Below are positions 20,463 through 30,252 of a stretch of DNA of 32,972 nucleotides, in pieces (position 1 is the first letter of the stretch; each line of letters starts with the position of its first letter). The position numbers and the translations under genes were made by a program. Location: the sequence record SRR31156797_6766; one strand, written 5' to 3'. The notes under the pieces were generated by a model, which saw only the letters and a list, made by a program, of their open reading frames with translations, was not told the DNA's origin and searched no databases.

Positions 20463-21809
20463 ATGCCAGAAACCGGAAAACATATTGCCATTTTAGGTGC
20501 CGGCGAAAGCGGTGTTGGTTCAGCTATTTTAGCTCAGACCAAAGGTTTTGATGTGTGGGTTTCTGATAAAGGTGAGATAAAGGAAAAATATAAGAAAGAG
20601 CTCAATAAGCATAAAATTCAATGGGAGGAAAAACAGCATACTGAATCAAAAATTTTAGCTGCTGATTTGATAGTAAAAAGTCCAGGTATTCCAGAGCATG
20701 TGCCTATGGTGGTAAAAGCAAAAGAGAAAGGTATTGATGTAATATCTGAAATCGAGTTTGCGGGAAGATATACCAATGCATTTATTATAGGCATAACAGG
20801 CAGTAATGGCAAAACCACAACTACCATGTGGACCTATCACATGCTTCGCAATGCAGGATTGAATGTTGGGTTAGCAGGGAATGTTGGTTTTAGCTTTGCA
20901 CGACAGGTAGCATTTGAGAGTTTTGATTATTATGTAATTGAACTCAGTAGTTTTCAGTTGGATGGCATGTATAATTTCCGTTGCAATATAGCCATGTTGT
21001 TAAATATTACCCCTGATCACCTGGATCGATATGATAATAAGTTTGAAAAATATATAGCTGCAAAATACCGGATCACACAAAATCAAACAAAAGATGACGT
21101 ATTTATTACAAGTGCTGATTGTCCGGTTATAAAGAAAAATGAATTAATAAATCAAGGAAATGCCCGAAAGCTTCAATTCTCAACAGAGATAGAGCTAAGT
21201 GAAGGGGCATGGATACAAAATGAAACACTAATGATTAATACAGGAAATAATCCGTTTGACATGATATACACAAAATTAGCGCTTGAAGGTAAGCATAATG
21301 CAGCCAATGGAATGGCTGCCGGAATTGCTGCGGATGTATTAAGAATATCGAAAGAAAACATCCGTGAAAGTCTCACCACTTTTAGTGGTGTTGAGCACAG
21401 ACTTGAGCCTTTTATTTCTGTTCGTGGCGTTGAGTTTATCAACGATTCCAAAGCAACTAATATTAACTCAACATGGTATGCCCTTGAAAGCATGCGAAAG
21501 GAAGTAGTTTGGATTGTAGGAGGAGTTGATAAAGGTAATGATTATAGTGAATTGGATAAATTGGTTGCTCAAAAAGTGAAGGCCATAGTATGCCTTGGAA
21601 CTGAAAATTCCAAGATTGTAGACCATTTCAAAGATAAAGTATCTCATATTATCGAAACATATAGCATGGAAGATGCCGTTAAGCAGGCATTTTTGCTGGG
21701 TCGTAAAGGAGATTGTGTATTGCTTTCGCCAGCTTGTGCAAGTTTCGATTTATTCGATAATTATGAAGATAGAGGTAATCAATTTAAAATGTGCGTTAGA
21801 GAACTATAG
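20463..21809 (+). CDS. murD: UDP-MurNAc-L-Ala--D-glutamate ligase
   Basis: 'GITGSNGKTTT', 'ELSSFQL', 'PDHLDRY', 'NDSKATN', 'LSPACASFD'. Confidence 0.97.
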   Translation: MPETGKHIAILGAGESGVGSAILAQTKGFDVWVSDKGEIKEKYKKELNKHKIQWEEKQHTESKILAADLIVKSPGIPEHVPMVVKAKEKGIDVISEIEFAGRYTNAFIIGITGSNGKTTTTMWTYHMLRNAGLNVGLAGNVGFSFARQVAFESFDYYVIELSSFQLDGMYNFRCNIAMLLNITPDHLDRYDNKFEKYIAAKYRITQNQTKDDVFITSADCPVIKKNELINQGNARKLQFSTEIELSEGAWIQNETLMINTGNNPFDMIYTKLALEGKHNAANGMAAGIAADVLRISKENIRESLTTFSGVEHRLEPFISVRGVEFINDSKATNINSTWYALESMRKEVVWIVGGVDKGNDYSELDKLVAQKVKAIVCLGTENSKIVDHFKDKVSHIIETYSMEDAVKQAFLLGRKGDCVLLSPACASFDLFDNYEDRGNQFKMCVREL

Positions 21810-21866
21810 ATGATTGATAAAACACTCTGGAAAGAAATATTATAAATGATAATAGAAGTTTTAGAA

Positions 21867-21947
21867 AAGAAGACAGAAGTCAGAAATCAGAAGACAGAAG
21901 ATCAAATATCAAAATTCTGTTTTCTGAATTCTGTCCTCTGATTTCTT
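21867..21947. repeat. Inverted arrays of 7-nt repeats (CAGAnnn x4 / TCTGnnn x4) with no enclosed gene
   Basis: CAGA at 21874, 21881, 21888, 21895; TCTG at 21916, 21923, 21930, 21937. Confidence 0.85.
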
Positions 21948-22024
21948 AAAGTTGAAAAATTTAGGAAAACACTAAAAAGTTAAGATATAGCTTAAAGGAT
22001 AAACCTTTAGTGAGATTTAAAGAA

Positions 22025-23227
22025 ATGAAGAGAAAAGGTATATTTGACATATTACAAGGAGACCGTGGAATTTGGATTATTGTATTTATTCTCGGTATAT
22101 TCTCTTTATTAGCTGTTTATAGCTCTACAGGAACATTAGCTTATAAGCGGTTTGGAGGAAATACCCAGTATTTTTTGATGCGTCATTTTGTGTTTATGTT
22201 GATGAGTTTAGGTGTAATGTACCTTGTGCACATGATCAGATATACCAGACTGTTGAGATTATCAAAACTGTTTTTCTATATTGCTATACCACTTTTGATT
22301 TATACTATGGTTGGAGGTTTGCGCTTAAATGAGGCAAGTCGTTGGATAACAGTACCTCTAATTAATCTATCATTTCAAACTTCAGACTTTGCAAAATTAG
22401 CATTAATGATGTATTTGGCCGCGATTATCGCTTCCAGACAGCAGGTTATTGATGATTTGAAAAAAGGATTTGGTCGTTTGATAGTCCCAGTAGCCGTGGT
22501 TTGCGCCTTGATTTTTCCTGCCGATTTTTCAACTGCTGGATTACTATTTTTAAGTGCTATAGTACTAATGTATATTGGCAGAGTAAAAATAAAATACTTA
22601 TTAGGTTTGATGGGTGTAGGGGTTATTGCGATTGCATTTTTCGTAATGATCGCTATGTTGTCAAATACTGAAAGTAGGGTAGGTACCTGGCAAAGCAGGA
22701 TTGAGAATTTTGTAAATGGTGATGAAGGTGAGAATTTTCAATCAGACCAGGCCAAAATTGCCATTGCCAGTGGTGGTGTTTTTGGAAAAGGATTAGGACA
22801 TAGTGTTCAAAGAAATATATTACCGCACCCATATTCTGATTTCATATTTGCAATTATTATTGAAGAGATGGGTATAGTGGGAGCATTGGTCATTATTTTC
22901 TTGTTTTTAATACTGTTTTATAGAACAGCAGCAATTGTTAAAAAGTGCAATAGAGTTGGGCCAGCCCTGCTTGTGGCAGGGATGATGATTTTAATGGTAA
23001 TACAAGCATTTGTGCATATGGGGGTAAGTGTGGGTTTATTGCCGGTAACAGGTCAAACTTTGCCTTTCGTGAGTATGGGAGGTACTTCAATGTTGATATC
23101 AAGTATACAAATGGGTGTGATTTTAAGTGTGAGCAGAAGTTTGAAAAAAGAAAAGAAAAATACACCTGAACCAATAATAGAAGAAGAAAGCGAGGAAGCT
23201 TATGAAGAAGATCAAAGTGATGATTAG
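22025..23227 (+). CDS. ftsW: Peptidoglycan glycosyltransferase FtsW (SEDS family)
   Basis: Multi-TM, 'SFQTSDFAK', 'LPHPYSDFIFAII', 'LPVTGQTLPFVSMGGTS'; in-frame ATG at 22025 preferred to GTG 22010. Confidence 0.95.
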   Translation: MKRKGIFDILQGDRGIWIIVFILGIFSLLAVYSSTGTLAYKRFGGNTQYFLMRHFVFMLMSLGVMYLVHMIRYTRLLRLSKLFFYIAIPLLIYTMVGGLRLNEASRWITVPLINLSFQTSDFAKLALMMYLAAIIASRQQVIDDLKKGFGRLIVPVAVVCALIFPADFSTAGLLFLSAIVLMYIGRVKIKYLLGLMGVGVIAIAFFVMIAMLSNTESRVGTWQSRIENFVNGDEGENFQSDQAKIAIASGGVFGKGLGHSVQRNILPHPYSDFIFAIIIEEMGIVGALVIIFLFLILFYRTAAIVKKCNRVGPALLVAGMMILMVIQAFVHMGVSVGLLPVTGQTLPFVSMGGTSMLISSIQMGVILSVSRSLKKEKKNTPEPIIEEESEEAYEEDQSDD

Positions 23228-26465: not shown

Positions 26466-27818
26466 ATGGCAATGAAAAATAGTATTATATCAGCAATTGA
26501 CATCGGTACAACCAAGATTATAGCAATCATTGGAAGAAAGACCGATAGTGGAAAATTTGAAATTCTTGGATTTGGAAGACATGATTCCAAAGGTGTAAGA
26601 AGAGGCGAGGTATTGAATATTGAAGAAACAGTGCAGAGTATTCAGAGTGCAGTAAATGAAGCTGAAGAAATGGCAGGAATGAAGATGAAAGAAGCCTATG
26701 TGGGAATTGCAGGAGCACATATTCGTTCACAGCGTACCAGTGGTTACATTCAGTTAAGCTCTCATGAAGAAGAGATTTCAGCTGCACATACCAAAGAATT
26801 GGTTGACCAAATGTACAATACTGCTGTGGATATGGGTGAGGAGATTATCCATGTTCTACCACAGGGATATTCTGTGGATGATGCCCAGGGAGTTGATAAT
26901 CCTGTGGGAGTTGCCGGAAAACGATTAGAGGGTAATTTCCATGTGGTAATTGGAAAGATTAGTGCAGCCAATAATATTAAAAAATGTGTAACACGTGTTG
27001 GAATTCAGGTGAAGAAATTGATCATGGAGCCTTTAGCTTCTGCTAGTGCTGTTTTGAGTGAAGATGAGCTTGAAGCTGGTGTAGCAATGATTGATATAGG
27101 TGGTGGAACAACTGATTTGGCTGTTTATAGAGATAAAAGAATTGTACATACCGCTGTTGTGCCATTAGGTGGTTATTCGGTTACAAATGACATCAAACAA
27201 GGATGCAATATCGTATGGAGATATGCTGAGCGTTTGAAAAAAGAGTTCGGACGTGCATTAGTGAACAGTAGCGATAAAAACAAAGTGGTAAAGATACCCG
27301 GAATAAACGGGATGCCTCATAAAGAGATTTCTTTCGTTCATCTTGCCGGAATTATCCAGGCTCGTATGGAAGAAATAATTGAGCATGTTGTTTACCAGCT
27401 AGATTCTAATGATTTACGCGGAAAGCTTGGTGCAGGTATTGTTGTAACTGGTGGTGGAGCATTATTGGAAAATTTACCACAATTAATGGCATATAAAACG
27501 GGTCAATTAACTCGAATTGGAAAACCAAGAGTTGCAGCTACAGGGGAATCCAAAGATGCAGTTCACGATCCAACATTAGCTACTGCAATTGGTTTAATCA
27601 TAGAAGGTCATAAAGATGCCAATAGTGGCAATGAAACAAAAGTCTCGGAGAAAATCTTAGATTTCCAGGCTGAACCTATTGAAAATGAAGTACAAGAAGA
27701 GGTGGAGTCAAAAGAAGAAGTAATAAAAGGTGAAGAGAAGAAATCAGGTAAGAAGATTAAAGATCAGGTAGGGAAGTTGTTTGGAAGCTTGTTTGATCTT
27801 GATGATACGAATATGTAG
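26466..27818 (+). CDS. ftsA: Cell division protein FtsA
   Basis: 'AIDIGTTKI', 'IDIGGGTTD', 'VVTGGGALL', C-terminal amphipathic helix. Confidence 0.97.
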   Translation: MAMKNSIISAIDIGTTKIIAIIGRKTDSGKFEILGFGRHDSKGVRRGEVLNIEETVQSIQSAVNEAEEMAGMKMKEAYVGIAGAHIRSQRTSGYIQLSSHEEEISAAHTKELVDQMYNTAVDMGEEIIHVLPQGYSVDDAQGVDNPVGVAGKRLEGNFHVVIGKISAANNIKKCVTRVGIQVKKLIMEPLASASAVLSEDELEAGVAMIDIGGGTTDLAVYRDKRIVHTAVVPLGGYSVTNDIKQGCNIVWRYAERLKKEFGRALVNSSDKNKVVKIPGINGMPHKEISFVHLAGIIQARMEEIIEHVVYQLDSNDLRGKLGAGIVVTGGGALLENLPQLMAYKTGQLTRIGKPRVAATGESKDAVHDPTLATAIGLIIEGHKDANSGNETKVSEKILDFQAEPIENEVQEEVESKEEVIKGEEKKSGKKIKDQVGKLFGSLFDLDDTNM

Positions 27819-27838: not shown

Positions 27839-29260
27839 ATGAGCGATGAAAACTTAATGCAATTTGATTTGCCACAAAACAGGTCTTCAATTATAAAAGT
27901 AATTGGAGTCGGAGGAGGTGGAGGAAATGCCGTGAATTACATGTATGAACAAGGCATTAATGAAGTAGATTTTGTGGTTTGCAATACCGATGCGCAAGAT
28001 TTAGCCAAAAGCCCTGTGCCGGTAAAGGTACAATTGGGAGAAAGTTTAACAGGTGGAAGAGGAGCTGGCAGCAAACCTGAAAAAGGAAGACAAGCTGCCA
28101 TTGAAAGTCTGGAGAGGATAGATGAAGTTTTGGGCTCAAATACTAAAATGGTATTTATTACTGCAGGTATGGGCGGTGGAACAGGTACTGGAGCGGCTCC
28201 AGTGATTGCAGAAGAAGCCCAGAAAAAAGGTATTCTGACAATTGGTATTGTTACTATCCCATTTTTATTTGAAGGTAAAAGAAGAATAAATCAGGCAATT
28301 GAAGGTATTGAACGCATGAAAGAGCATGTAGATTCATTGCTTGTGATCAATAATGAAAAGTTACGGGAAATTTATGGTGACTCTTCTGCTTTAAAAGCTT
28401 TTAGTCATGCTGATGATATTTTAAGTACTGCCGCTAAAGGAATTGCAGAAATTATAACAGTTGAGGGTGTTGTGAATGTTGACTTTGAAGATGTTTATAC
28501 TGTAATGCATAATAGTGGAGTGGCACTAATGGGTAGGGCCACAGCTGAAGGCGAAAGCAGAGCTGTAAAAGCGATTGAAAAAGCACTTACATCGCCATTA
28601 CTTAATAATAATGACATTCACGGTTCCAAAAATATGTTATTGCATATTACTTCTGGCTCTGATGAAGTTACAATGGATGAGATAGGACAAATTACTGATT
28701 TTGCCCAGGATGAAGCAGGGCAAAATGCAGATGTAATTTGGGGATTAAGTTCGGACCCTCAACTAGGAGATAAAGTTGCTGTAACTGTGATTGCTACAGG
28801 TTTTGATACTGATGTAATTCCTGAAATATATGCTATGCGTGCAGAGCAAGTGGAGAAAGTAGAGCTAAAAGCAGATCCAGGTGATGAACCAACTGAAATA
28901 AGTTTGGAAGAAAAAGAGACAAAAAGTGATAAAGAAGAACACATATTGTCAATGGATGATCCACTTTCTACTCCTGATGTAGATGAGAAGCCTGTTATTC
29001 CACAAACGAACATAAGTGATGGTGCTGGAGGCATAAAACCGGAGACAAAACAAATTACTAAAATAGAAGAAGATCCACGTTGGGATGGTAAAAAGTTGGA
29101 AGAGTTGGAATCTGTACCTGCTTATTTACGTCGTAAAACTAAATTGGCAAGTAATCCTGCAGATGATAGTGATGAGGTTTCTCGTTACACCTTAAGCGAC
29201 GACGAAGATGGTCCGAGTATTAATCCTGATAATTCGTATTTGAATAATAATGTGGATTAA
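27839..29260 (+). CDS. ftsZ: Cell division protein FtsZ
   Basis: 'GVGGGGGNAV', 'GMGGGTGTG', 'NVDFEDV', conserved tail 'VPAYLRR' and '..NNVD'. Confidence 0.98.
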   Translation: MSDENLMQFDLPQNRSSIIKVIGVGGGGGNAVNYMYEQGINEVDFVVCNTDAQDLAKSPVPVKVQLGESLTGGRGAGSKPEKGRQAAIESLERIDEVLGSNTKMVFITAGMGGGTGTGAAPVIAEEAQKKGILTIGIVTIPFLFEGKRRINQAIEGIERMKEHVDSLLVINNEKLREIYGDSSALKAFSHADDILSTAAKGIAEIITVEGVVNVDFEDVYTVMHNSGVALMGRATAEGESRAVKAIEKALTSPLLNNNDIHGSKNMLLHITSGSDEVTMDEIGQITDFAQDEAGQNADVIWGLSSDPQLGDKVAVTVIATGFDTDVIPEIYAMRAEQVEKVELKADPGDEPTEISLEEKETKSDKEEHILSMDDPLSTPDVDEKPVIPQTNISDGAGGIKPETKQITKIEEDPRWDGKKLEELESVPAYLRRKTKLASNPADDSDEVSRYTLSDDEDGPSINPDNSYLNNNVD

Positions 29261-29293
29261 TTTGGAGACGGGGAATATTTTATTTTTCAAAGT

Positions 29294-29329
29294 ATAGAAT
29301 TCAGAATTTTAGAATTCAGAATATAGAAT
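29294..29329 (+). repeat. Left 7-nt repeat array (nnAGAAT x5)
   Basis: atagaat tcagaat tttagaat tcagaat atagaat; the last unit provides the AT of the start codon. Confidence 0.9.
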
Positions 29330-29699
29330 GCAAGACAGAAAAACAGCAAGAAAATTTGAAGATTTAATCGTATGGCAAAAATCTCATAATCTTGTTTTAT
29401 CAATATATAGAGCCAGTGATGATTTCCCAAAAGCAGAGCTTTTTGGTATAACCTCCCAAATAAGAAGATCAAGTATATCAATTGCAGCAAATATTGCTGA
29501 AGGGTTTAAAAAGCGAAGTATAAAAGATAAGATGAGGTTCTTAAATATTGCACAAGGGTCTTTGGAAGAAACAAGATACTTTTTAATACTTATTAAAGAT
29601 TTAGGATATTGTGAGACAAGTCAATTGAGTAAAAACATAGAGGAAATAAGTAAACTTATGGAAAGTTACATTTCAAAACTAAGACAATCACTTGGATAA
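29328..29699 (+). CDS. Four helix bundle protein (23S rRNA intervening-sequence protein family)
   Basis: 'FEDLIVWQKS', 'FPKAELFGITSQIRRSSISIAANIAEG', 'FLNIAQGSLEETRYFLIL..DLGY'. Confidence 0.95.
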   Translation: MQDRKTARKFEDLIVWQKSHNLVLSIYRASDDFPKAELFGITSQIRRSSISIAANIAEGFKKRSIKDKMRFLNIAQGSLEETRYFLILIKDLGYCETSQLSKNIEEISKLMESYISKLRQSLG

Positions 29700-29702
29700 T
29701 AA

Positions 29703-29737
29703 ATTCTGAATTCTGAATTCTATATTCTGAATTCAAT
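29703..29737 (-). repeat. Right 7-nt repeat array (ATTCTnn-type x5), inverted relative to the left array
   Basis: attctga attctga attctat attctga attcaat; 29717-29734 is the exact reverse complement of 29312-29329. Confidence 0.9.
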
Positions 29738-29750
29738 AAATACGAATGCA

Positions 29751-30200
29751 ATGAGTTTAGAAGCAACAATAACAGAAAAAATGAAAGAGGCCATGAAGGC
29801 TAAGGAAAAGGAGAAGCTTGAGGCTATTAGAGCTATTAAAAATGCCATATTGCAAGAGAAAACGAAGGCAGGGGGAAGTGATGAACTTGATGAAGCTACT
29901 GAATTAAAGATGTTGCAAAAGTTAGTAAAACAACGTGAAGATTCAGCAGATATTTATAAAAAAGAGAATCGCCCAGAATTGGCAGAAAAAGAATTATTTG
30001 AAGCAGGTATTATTCGTGAATTTTTACCGGAACCACTGTCAGAGGATGAAATTAATGCAGAGATTGAAAAGATAATTACAGATACTGGAGCATCAGGTAT
30101 GAAAGACATGGGCAAAGTGATGGGAATGGCAAATAAAGCTATGGCTGGACGAGCCGATGGTAAACTAATTTCAGAAATTGTAAAAGCGAAATTGCAATAA
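29751..30200 (+). CDS. GatB/YqeY domain protein
   Basis: 'MKEAMKAKE', 'KLVKQREDSADIY', 'FLPEPLSEDEI', 'GASGMKDMGKVMG', 'GRADGK'. Confidence 0.95.
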   Translation: MSLEATITEKMKEAMKAKEKEKLEAIRAIKNAILQEKTKAGGSDELDEATELKMLQKLVKQREDSADIYKKENRPELAEKELFEAGIIREFLPEPLSEDEINAEIEKIITDTGASGMKDMGKVMGMANKAMAGRADGKLISEIVKAKLQ

Positions 30201-30216
30201 CTATCTTAAATTATTT

Positions 30217-30252
30217 AAAGGCGTCTGATGATAAAATTAGGCGTCTTTTTTT
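30217..30252 (+). terminator. Rho-independent terminator ending the dcw-yqeY transcript
   Basis: aaaggcgtctgat...attaggcgtcttttttt (stem with G-U pairs, then U-tract). Confidence 0.7.

Follow-up and report, generated by a model that had tools for sequence, protein, structure and literature searches.

The 32,972-nucleotide (nt) stretch SRR31156797_6766, which was analysed whole and is called the window below (positions are counted from its first letter), carries a gene of the PF05635 four-helix-bundle family between ftsZ and yqeY, and this gene is bracketed by two arrays of 7-nt units that are reverse complements of each other. We consider it somewhat probable, at roughly 55%, that this locus is an operon-spacer cassette of the intervening sequence (IVS) type, that it belongs to a widespread class, and that its arrays are putative binding sites of a pentameric protein. 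Members of the class would share one build, namely a PF05635 gene, a 5' array of short units (usually 7 nt) and a reverse-complement 3' array, the same as in those IVSs of 23S ribosomal RNA (rRNA) that carry an open reading frame (ORF). An initial annotation of the window had already proposed a candidate messenger RNA (mRNA) intervening sequence or mobile cassette here; what it had observed was confirmed as a whole, and its interpretation is partly supported.

Two inverted heptamer arrays enclose the window gene

Read directly, the upstream array on the plus strand consists of the units ATAGAAT, TCAGAAT, tTTAGAAT (8 nt), TCAGAAT and ATAGAAT at 29294–29329 and is followed by a G, so that the last unit gives the AT of the start codon (ATG, 29328–29330) and the array, merged with it, spans 29294–29330. 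The gene occupies 29328–29699 on the same strand. It closes with two in-frame stops in tandem, TAATAA (29697–29702), made of the stop codon TAA at 29697–29699 and a second TAA at 29700–29702, right before the downstream units ATTCTGA, ATTCTGA, ATTCTAT, ATTCTGA and ATTCaat at 29703–29737. Direct reading thus bears out the earlier description of five nnAGAAT units running into the ATG and five ATTCTnn units starting 3 nt past the stop, and the exact inverted matches reported with it, of 18 bp (29312–29329 with 29717–29734) and 16 bp (29293–29308 with 29709–29724), are correct. TRF places period-7 arrays at 29295–29329 and 29702–29734, and all 6 exact matches to AGAATNNAGAAT in the window fall within the two arms.

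The arms had also been predicted to pair in several registers around the ORF. An inverted-repeat search returned 11 pairs in the region. Six of them (I1–I6) connect the two flanks in differing registers, with lengths of up to 39 nt (at 79%) and 23 nt (at 91%). In agreement with that prediction, the arms are paired with each other around the ORF in the centroid RNA fold; the whole 491-nt fold reaches just z = –1.73. Terminal inverted repeats that close a stem, as in rRNA IVSs, are therefore a property of the window cassette. The 8-nt direct repeat gaatgcaa, previously noted at the start codons of this gene and of yqeY, is real (29326–29333 and 29744–29751), but it was rejected as a target duplication: the syntenic cassette of the nearest relative genome (G001) lacks it, so it is probably due to chance. 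It was the sole candidate for a target-site duplication, and the empty sites of relatives are too diverged for base-by-base alignment.

The product of 123 amino acids matches PF05635 with E = 1.8e–37 and 128.2 bits (cut-off 33.8) over profile positions 1–104 of 106, and TIGR02436 with 126.2 bits (cut-off 24). Its nearest solved relative is XCC0516 (PDB 2GSC, E = 7.6e–19), its second PDB homolog is 2RLD (E = 1.1e–5), and each of the two entries contains five chains; the title of 2GSC, as it stands in the reference list of another paper (PMC3936711), describes five four-helix bundles. From these homologs we infer that the window protein is a four-helix bundle that would form a pentamer.

In G001 (yqeY 91% and ftsZ 87% identical) the order ftsA-ftsZ-cassette-yqeY is the same as in the window. 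Synonymous divergence (pS) between the two is 0.62–0.64 for ftsA, ftsZ and yqeY, and despite this a 38-nt downstream stretch, ATTCTGA...AATAAA (29703–29740), is identical, which suggests that the arm is constrained or is homogenised with other copies. For the cassette ORF nonsynonymous and synonymous divergence (pN/pS) are 0.166/0.817, so the protein is under purifying selection. The G001 ORF, 74% identical to that of the window, has one in-frame TAA at codon 61 (locus L001, 3181–3183, on contig G001:C261); it otherwise looks selected, and the TAA marks either a recent pseudogene or an assembly error.

Arrays flank PF05635 genes across the family

For the survey of flanks we combined the best 80 relatives of the window protein (one genome per species), the PF05635 matches in G001, in 40 relatives of G001 and in one Calothrix genome, and 40 hand-picked paralog sites from five of these genomes (G005, G022, G037, G031 and G018), which are mostly above cut-off and two of which have in-frame stops or are split. 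The survey covers a selection of the matches listed. The survey profile, built from the collected sequences, covers 169 ORFs in 164 sources with the window included; of these, 156 have their full length, and the 80-nt flanks are clean in 147, which come down to 144 unique ones. An array was called where the period-7 self-match reached at least 14 of 21.

By this measure an array is present upstream of 86 of the 144 cassettes, downstream of 72, on either side of 113 and on both sides of 45. Lags of 5, 6, 8, 9 and 10 give a mean of 8/144 at the same threshold, and control flanks taken from other genes of the same loci reach it in 8/161 cases upstream and 14/161 downstream. When at least 17 of 21 is required, 46 upstream and 40 downstream flanks remain, as compared with 2 of 424 random same-locus stretches. 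Arrays accompany 69 of the 76 close homologs and 44 of the 68 other paralogs. In some cassettes (L163 in G022, L183 in G031, and L061) the period is 6 (CAGNAG) or 8 (GTGCTAAT; GAACTCCT) instead of 7.

The complementarity of the arms is locus-specific. When upstream flanks were compared with reverse-complemented downstream flanks, the mean local score was 25.2 for the cassette's own partner versus 15.1 for a permuted one, and the own partner was better than all 5 permuted partners in 81 loci out of 144, where 24 would be expected. Both neighbours lie within 400 nt in 71 cassettes, and 58 of these are co-directional with both. The expectation that paralogs would have such flanks therefore holds for the 113 cassettes with an array on at least one side, and the survey suggests that the gene-plus-repeat build is general across the family.

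The repeat unit follows the protein clade

The 76 closest homologs of the window protein (53–74% identity) come from at least ten phylum-level groups, as judged by record titles, and share a yAGrA core; they include Bacteroidota, Cyanobacteria, Verrucomicrobiota, Acidobacteriota, Planctomycetota, Bacillota, Desulfobacterota, Chlorobi-type bacteria, Chlamydiota and others. Their consensus unit is (T/A)(C/T)AG(A/G)A(T/G), in which A3 (0.91), G4 (0.96) and A6 (0.96) are fixed and the remaining positions are free; the phase was set against a reference unit, which somewhat favours that unit. Start and stop codons often belong to the arrays in this clade: 21 of the 76 upstream arrays end in ..AGRATG, in 32 of the 76 a TGA is directly followed by MTYCT, and TGA serves as the stop in 51/76 close homologs versus 10/68 other paralogs. 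On the Nostoc punctiforme plasmid pNPUN02 (L256, locus 1840–1890) the ORF runs on into the downstream array, where a CTCCTGA unit supplies its TGA stop.

Paralogs within one genome have differing units, each mirrored on the opposite side of its gene (for example GGCAGTT/AACTGCC, GATTTAC/GTAAATC, TCAAATG/CATTTGA and WAACTGA/TCAGTTA, with some 6- or 8-mers). Protein identity was compared with unit distance over the 103 cassettes whose unit is clear; the two are correlated at Spearman rho = –0.48, and 0 of 999 Mantel permutations gave a value as low. More telling than this correlation are seven sub-clades of 50–79% identity, each drawn from different genomes and each with a common unit core (GATC, ACAAACYT, GGCAG, GTGGG, GTCATT, GGTTGC and GTGA). 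The covariation of protein and repeat that the initial annotation had singled out for checking is thus seen both in the correlation and in the sub-clade cores, and on the sequences compared the unit is that of the protein clade, not of the host genome. The upstream unit contains more G than C on the sense strand in 41 versus 4 cases in the close clade and in 24 versus 6 among the other paralogs (p = 0.0014), so the two arms are not equivalent relative to the ORF.

Arrays of the same unit occur without the gene

A second array pair in the window, earlier called an empty copy of the cassette, is real. Five cAGAAGn units at 21868–21901 and five nTTCTGn-type units at 21913–21946, separated by an 11-nt loop, form an ORF-less hairpin (21866–21947, plus strand; –33.6 kcal/mol, z = –5.35, 0 of 200 shuffles as good) in the spacer between murD (20463–21809, plus strand; Pfam Mur ligase domains) and ftsW (22025–23227, plus strand; Pfam FTSW_RODA_SPOVE, E = 6.6e–73). 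Its arms count 5+5 units in the window and about 3+3 in G001. Just these two have it: in G002–G006 the murD/ftsW spacer is 0–40 nt long and array-free. The entire spacer of ~200 nt (window 21810–22024, compared with L390 of G001) is specific to the window and G001; as murD and ftsW abut or overlap in the relatives, the inserted piece was bigger than the arrays. A full PF05635 cassette occupies the murD/ftsW spacer of a Cyclobacteriaceae metagenome-assembled genome (L059, Pfam-typed), and four or five further loci of Cyclobacteriaceae type (L004, L017, L043, L049/L050) have, behind the cassette, a gene that begins with the same conserved FtsW-like N-terminus, as judged by eye from the DNA.

A genome search for three AGAAT units with up to one mismatch gave 34 matches at ~9 sites in G001, seven or eight of which are ORF-less hairpins, 1 match in G003 and 0 in G002, G004 and G005. 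Three GATTKAC units gave 519 matches at more than 100 sites in the cassette host G031 and 0 in four other genomes; many of the G031 arrays are solo, do not form hairpins and stand just past stop codons (L235, L242 and L246 are examples). Three WAACTGA units gave 18 matches at ~7 sites in G016 and 0 in four others, and three TCARATG units gave 14 matches in the cassette host G037, 9 in G018 and 0 in three others. With the four tests pooled, 14 of 16 non-host genomes are without any match. Reversed-pattern controls returned 0 in the GATTKAC, WAACTGA and TCARATG tests; reversed AGAAT returned 0 in G001, G002 and G005, 1 in G003 and 4 in G004. ORF-less arrays of a cassette's own unit, in a genome that has the cognate gene, are therefore found in the AGAAT, GATTKAC and WAACTGA tests, in line with the pairing of full and empty copies proposed at the outset. 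In the run that is possibly the source of the window, other contigs of similar depth (167 and 159 versus 172) contain an ATTCTGA array.

Presence, absence and apparent mobility of the cassettes

Paralogs and synteny were examined in G001 and its relatives. Relatives had been expected to show empty ftsZ-yqeY junctions, and the next four indeed have neither cassette nor array: yqeY follows ftsZ after a spacer of 11 or 55 nt in G002 and G005 (87% identity) and in G004 and G006 (83–84%). G003 has a solo four-unit array without an ORF at ftsZ/yqeY and no array at murD/ftsW. The solo array (contig G003:C54, L093) reads TAGAATg TAGAAGt TAGAATa TAGTA, and the yqeY match there is broken by three stops. 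In more distant relatives (L096, L097, L110) the ftsZ/yqeY spacer contains AAGGTGC AAGGAAC AAGGTAC and a GGTTAGG/CCTAACC hairpin, with no PF05635 gene. Among the compared genomes, then, the ftsZ/yqeY cassette and the murD/ftsW hairpin belong to the window and its nearest relative G001 only. This pattern of presence and absence favours the mobile cassette that had been proposed, but the window copy itself has been inherited vertically since the split from G001 and is not evidence of current mobility.

At one site of G005 a segment of 713 nt, made of the ORF and a downstream array of ~35 units, stands where G002 has 25 nt, inside a short degenerate solo array. Two other G005 cassette sites were sought in G002: L155 was unmatched, and the flanks of L125 matched dispersed repeats only. 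These flanks contain stretches of ~60–160 nt that match ~50 places in G002 at 70–97% identity, a separate dispersed repeat family. The number of PF05635 matches per genome ranges from 0 to 16 among 41 relatives. With an array at either end, an ORF could plausibly be gained or lost through recombination. A tblastn search of phage records matched no relative, none of the 27 pattern matches in a scan of viral contigs encodes one, and no transposase adjoins the cassettes that were read. Taken over the genomes compared, the unit of gene plus repeats is apparently mobile.

The cassettes occupy various operon spacers. Two of them (L184 in G031 and L192 in G018, 56% identical, with GTGGGTG-type arrays) lie in transfer RNA (tRNA) clusters, one between tRNA-Ser and tRNA-Pro, the other between tRNA-Pro and tRNA-Arg; an Rfam search of five cassette loci found tRNAs only. 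In a type III-B CRISPR operon on plasmid NZ_CP016476.1 of Picosynechococcus sp. PCC 7003, a cassette with GGAGATA/TATCTCC arms separates cas10/cmr2 from cmr3 (L255, 1440–1900), in line with the 18 such genes in cas loci mentioned in the accessible part of PMC3936711. A cassette with TCAGGAG arrays is found on pNPUN02 of Nostoc punctiforme, and cyanobacterial plasmid carriage extends to 23 records, 13 of them typed as conjugative. Cassettes in 16S and 23S insertions have been described for bacteria of the candidate phyla radiation, according to the part of the report that was accessible (10.1101/2024.02.27.582315).

The host locus in the window

By direct reading and the list of ORFs, the plus strand carries an operon-like cluster with, in order, ftsA (26466–27818), ftsZ (27839–29260; Pfam Tubulin and FtsZ_C), the PF05635 ORF and yqeY (29751–30200; GatB/YqeY-like, Pfam YqeY E = 1.2e–47), so that ftsZ is the host gene 5' and yqeY the host gene 3' of the cassette. 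A terminator-like hairpin with a T run lies 3' of yqeY (30217–30248, plus strand) and is the single terminator-like plus-strand site near the cassette. A scan for sigma-70-type promoters gave 9 matches with 5.4 expected, and the sigma-70 model is uninformative for Bacteroidota. No Rfam family, rRNA included, was matched in the window. In two of four RNA runs, taken with two DNA runs, the RNA-run contigs at the locus cover the 3' part of ftsZ and an array copy from another locus, and none extends over the cassette ORF.

Discussion

PF05635 genes were first found inside rRNA spacers. The window cassette resembles the ORF-bearing IVSs of 23S rRNA (Leptospira, and S23p of Coxiella) in having a PF05635 ORF and inverted repeats able to close a stem; unlike them it sits in the spacer between two protein genes, ftsZ and yqeY, and not in a 23S or 16S rRNA helix. 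In the accessible text of one study, the Coxiella IVS has tandem GACAGAT heptamers directly before the ATG of S23p, in strain-variable copy number, and a 28-bp terminal stem that is cleaved by RNase III in vitro (PMC4990558). The heptamers thus stand directly before the ATG as they do here, with a CAGA core, and together with the stem they strengthen the link to ORF-bearing rRNA IVSs. A family-wide array rule, clade-specific units and cognate ORF-less arrays are not described in that text (PMC4990558).

Other known systems resemble the cassettes in part. In REPIN-RAYT systems inverted copies of a gene's own short repeat stand on both sides of it, the repeat is clade-specific and there are many gene-less copies, all of which applies to the cassettes as well. 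RAYT is an HUH transposase and the repetitive extragenic palindromes (REPs) are 20–35 nt long; the cassette protein, unlike RAYT, is a four-helix bundle without known catalytic activity, and its repeats are tandem 7-mers. No HUH transposase of the IS200/IS605 type is encoded by the ORF, which matches PF05635 and bAvd only, while terminal inverted repeats together with gene-less copies in the same genome, as expected of DNA transposons and MITEs (miniature transposable elements with inverted repeats), are found. Avd of diversity-generating retroelements (DGRs) binds nucleic acids, belongs to the same fold family and likewise has pentameric relatives. The window ORF is below the Avd cut-offs (26 bits versus 40 for bAvd PF22296, 26.3 versus 80 for NF033474), and no DGR parts are present among the typed immediate neighbours, ftsZ and yqeY, the rest of the window not having been scanned for reverse transcriptase.

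TRAP and HutP (UAG every 7 nt) are ring-shaped RNA-binding regulators that read tandem short repeats. As a functional analogy only, they share with the cassettes a homo-oligomer, a short core of fixed period, free spacers and an array adjacent to the start codon; their fold is unrelated, and binding of the units by PF05635 proteins is only inferred. Cyanobacterial short tandemly repeated repetitive (STRR) sequences are heptamer arrays without an explained role. Arrays of the heptamer TAACTGA have been described in Beggiatoaceae, Cyanobacteria and 5 Bacteroidetes, with S1, Csp or Csr as proposed binders; the accessible text of that paper, supplementary tables aside, contains no occurrence of '23S', 'S23' or 'four-helix' (PMC4679880). 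Like these and the STRR arrays, as far as that text describes them, the cassette arrays are intergenic tandem 7-mers that often end at a start codon and are patchy across the same phyla. The arms of one cassette (L134 in G016) are exactly WAACTGA/TCAGTTA.

How might such a cassette work? We suppose that it is transcribed by read-through from the host operon, and that the homo-pentameric protein would bind the arrays sequence-specifically, with roughly one unit per subunit. By analogy with ring proteins on tandem short repeats, the likeliest bound form would be single-stranded RNA; such unit-specific binding would go with an invariant period and core and with spacers that vary freely. The paired arms may insulate the ORF, or may let processing remove it from the message of the host operon in the way that RNase III handles rRNA IVSs. 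ORF-less arrays would be decayed or non-autonomous relatives of full cassettes, and recombination between arrays would be the simplest route by which an ORF is gained or lost.

Several observations weigh against this picture. Neither an array nor complementary arms were found for 18 of the 144 cassettes (6 close homologs and 12 other paralogs), arrays reach the threshold on both sides in just 45 of the 144, and some cassettes (GATC type, L148) have direct, not inverted, arrays. The proposal that five units per arm match a pentamer is compatible with the unit counts, which peak at 4–5, but is not diagnostic, as the range is 2–29 per array and the median ~4.6; the counting rule is strict and misses units in degenerate arrays (it gave 1.9 units for the window's own upstream array). 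The Mantel figure is inflated by two-group sampling. The ORF-less hairpins in G001 have loops without relation to one another, which sets them apart from copies of a single mobile master element. G018 has TCARATG arrays, yet this unit accompanies none of the 10 PF05635 matches read there, which is an exception or an assembly gap. Finally, in a set of 80 metagenome loci, each with four exact AGAATnn units, just 1 is a two-armed PF05635 cassette and ~10 form hairpins, the others being solo arrays. Most arrays of this kind therefore occur by themselves and may not depend on the protein.

The arm mismatches also give no support to selection on the stem as RNA and bear on the first alternative. According to it, which we regard as unlikely, the cassette is an RNA IVS and nothing else: the arms would be only a stem cut by RNase III, freeing the ORF RNA and separating the ftsZ and yqeY messages, the 7-nt period would be a by-product of multi-register pairing and slippage, and the protein would not recognise the unit. 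The centroid fold with its arms paired around the ORF, the match in build to the Coxiella IVS, whose stem RNase III cuts according to the accessible text cited above (PMC4990558), the cassettes in tRNA clusters and the co-directionality of 58/71 with their neighbours are all in its favour. A sense-strand excess of G.U over A.C was sought in the arm mismatches as a signal of an RNA stem; there is none (46 versus 46, with a ratio of 0.94 expected from composition), so that complementarity may be kept at the DNA level or by rapid turnover. A single side reaches the threshold in 68 of the 113 cassettes that have an array, and direct arrays also occur. The tracking of protein clade by the unit across phyla, the solo non-hairpin cognate arrays throughout a host genome and the contrast of fixed core and variable spacer positions are all left unexplained by a stem.

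Still less likely, in our view, is a DNA element of the MITE or REPIN type, in which the arrays would be terminal inverted repeats for an unlinked recombinase or for host recombination and the four-helix-bundle protein would be carried along as cargo, perhaps as a factor in defence or regulation, without acting at the arrays. Polymorphic presence with array-bearing or clean empty sites, ORF-less copies, the symmetric mismatch spectrum, the 0–16 PF05635 matches per genome in 41 relatives and the plasmid carriage (23 records, 13 conjugative) would all fit such an element. It does not sit well with the lack of a target-site duplication and of a transposase adjoining the cassettes read, nor with hairpin loops and unit variants that differ between copies; covariation of protein and unit and a fixed polarity would be unexpected for passive cargo. 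That the gene is an ordinary small one whose A+T-rich flanks have acquired slippage repeats by chance, with no functional link, is very improbable: Bacteroidota intergenic DNA is A+T-rich and 79/80 of the metagenome loci have 7-nt repeats without the gene, but chance does not account for arrays at 113/144 cassettes versus 5–9% of control flanks with lag 7 standing out, for locus-specific arm complementarity, for an arm identical at 38/38 nt where synonymous sites differ by 62%, or for a unit conserved across phyla.

Part of this was already known, namely the terminal stem and pre-ORF heptamers of the Coxiella IVS (PMC4990558) and heptamer arrays without a partner (PMC4679880), as described in the accessible texts. 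In searches of full-text literature outside subscription journals and supplementary files we found no paper with the family-wide rule, clade-specific units or cognate gene-less arrays, nor any that connects PF05635 genes at large with heptamer arrays in their flanks, and for heptamers before this ORF the search turned up the Coxiella paper only (PMC4990558). Going beyond the cassette itself, we tentatively suggest, with somewhat less than even confidence, that PF05635 proteins are the missing partners of bacterial tandem heptamer repeats of the STRR and TAACTGA types, that they would read these as pentameric rings with one subunit per unit, each protein clade having a 7-nt unit of its own, and that the cassette travels between phyla while its gene-less arrays spread.

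Thousands of genomes have annotated members of PF05635, a very large family without known function; where the ORF-bearing rRNA IVSs come from and how they move has been a puzzle since the early 1990s, and the heptamer arrays of Cyanobacteria, Beggiatoaceae and Bacteroidota have no assigned partner. A four-part rule, consisting of clade-specific bracketing arrays, cognate gene-less arrays, empty sites in relatives and placement in operon spacers (rRNA, tRNA, cas and cell-division), ties these three puzzles, PF05635 function, rRNA IVSs and heptamer arrays, together. It also matters for annotation, as the cassettes interrupt housekeeping operons and the arrays can be mistaken for other repeat types. 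Cultured carriers are at hand in Nostoc punctiforme PCC 73102 and Picosynechococcus PCC 7003. If the wider suggestion on heptamer partners is true, PF05635 genes form a self-contained cassette that colonises the spacers of rRNA, tRNA and mRNA operons and moves between phyla with its own arrays, while gene-less arrays spread to as many as hundreds of sites where they would be able to act on neighbouring genes. This would be a system of repeat plus partner comparable to REPIN-RAYT, built on a non-enzymatic ring that binds nucleic acids.

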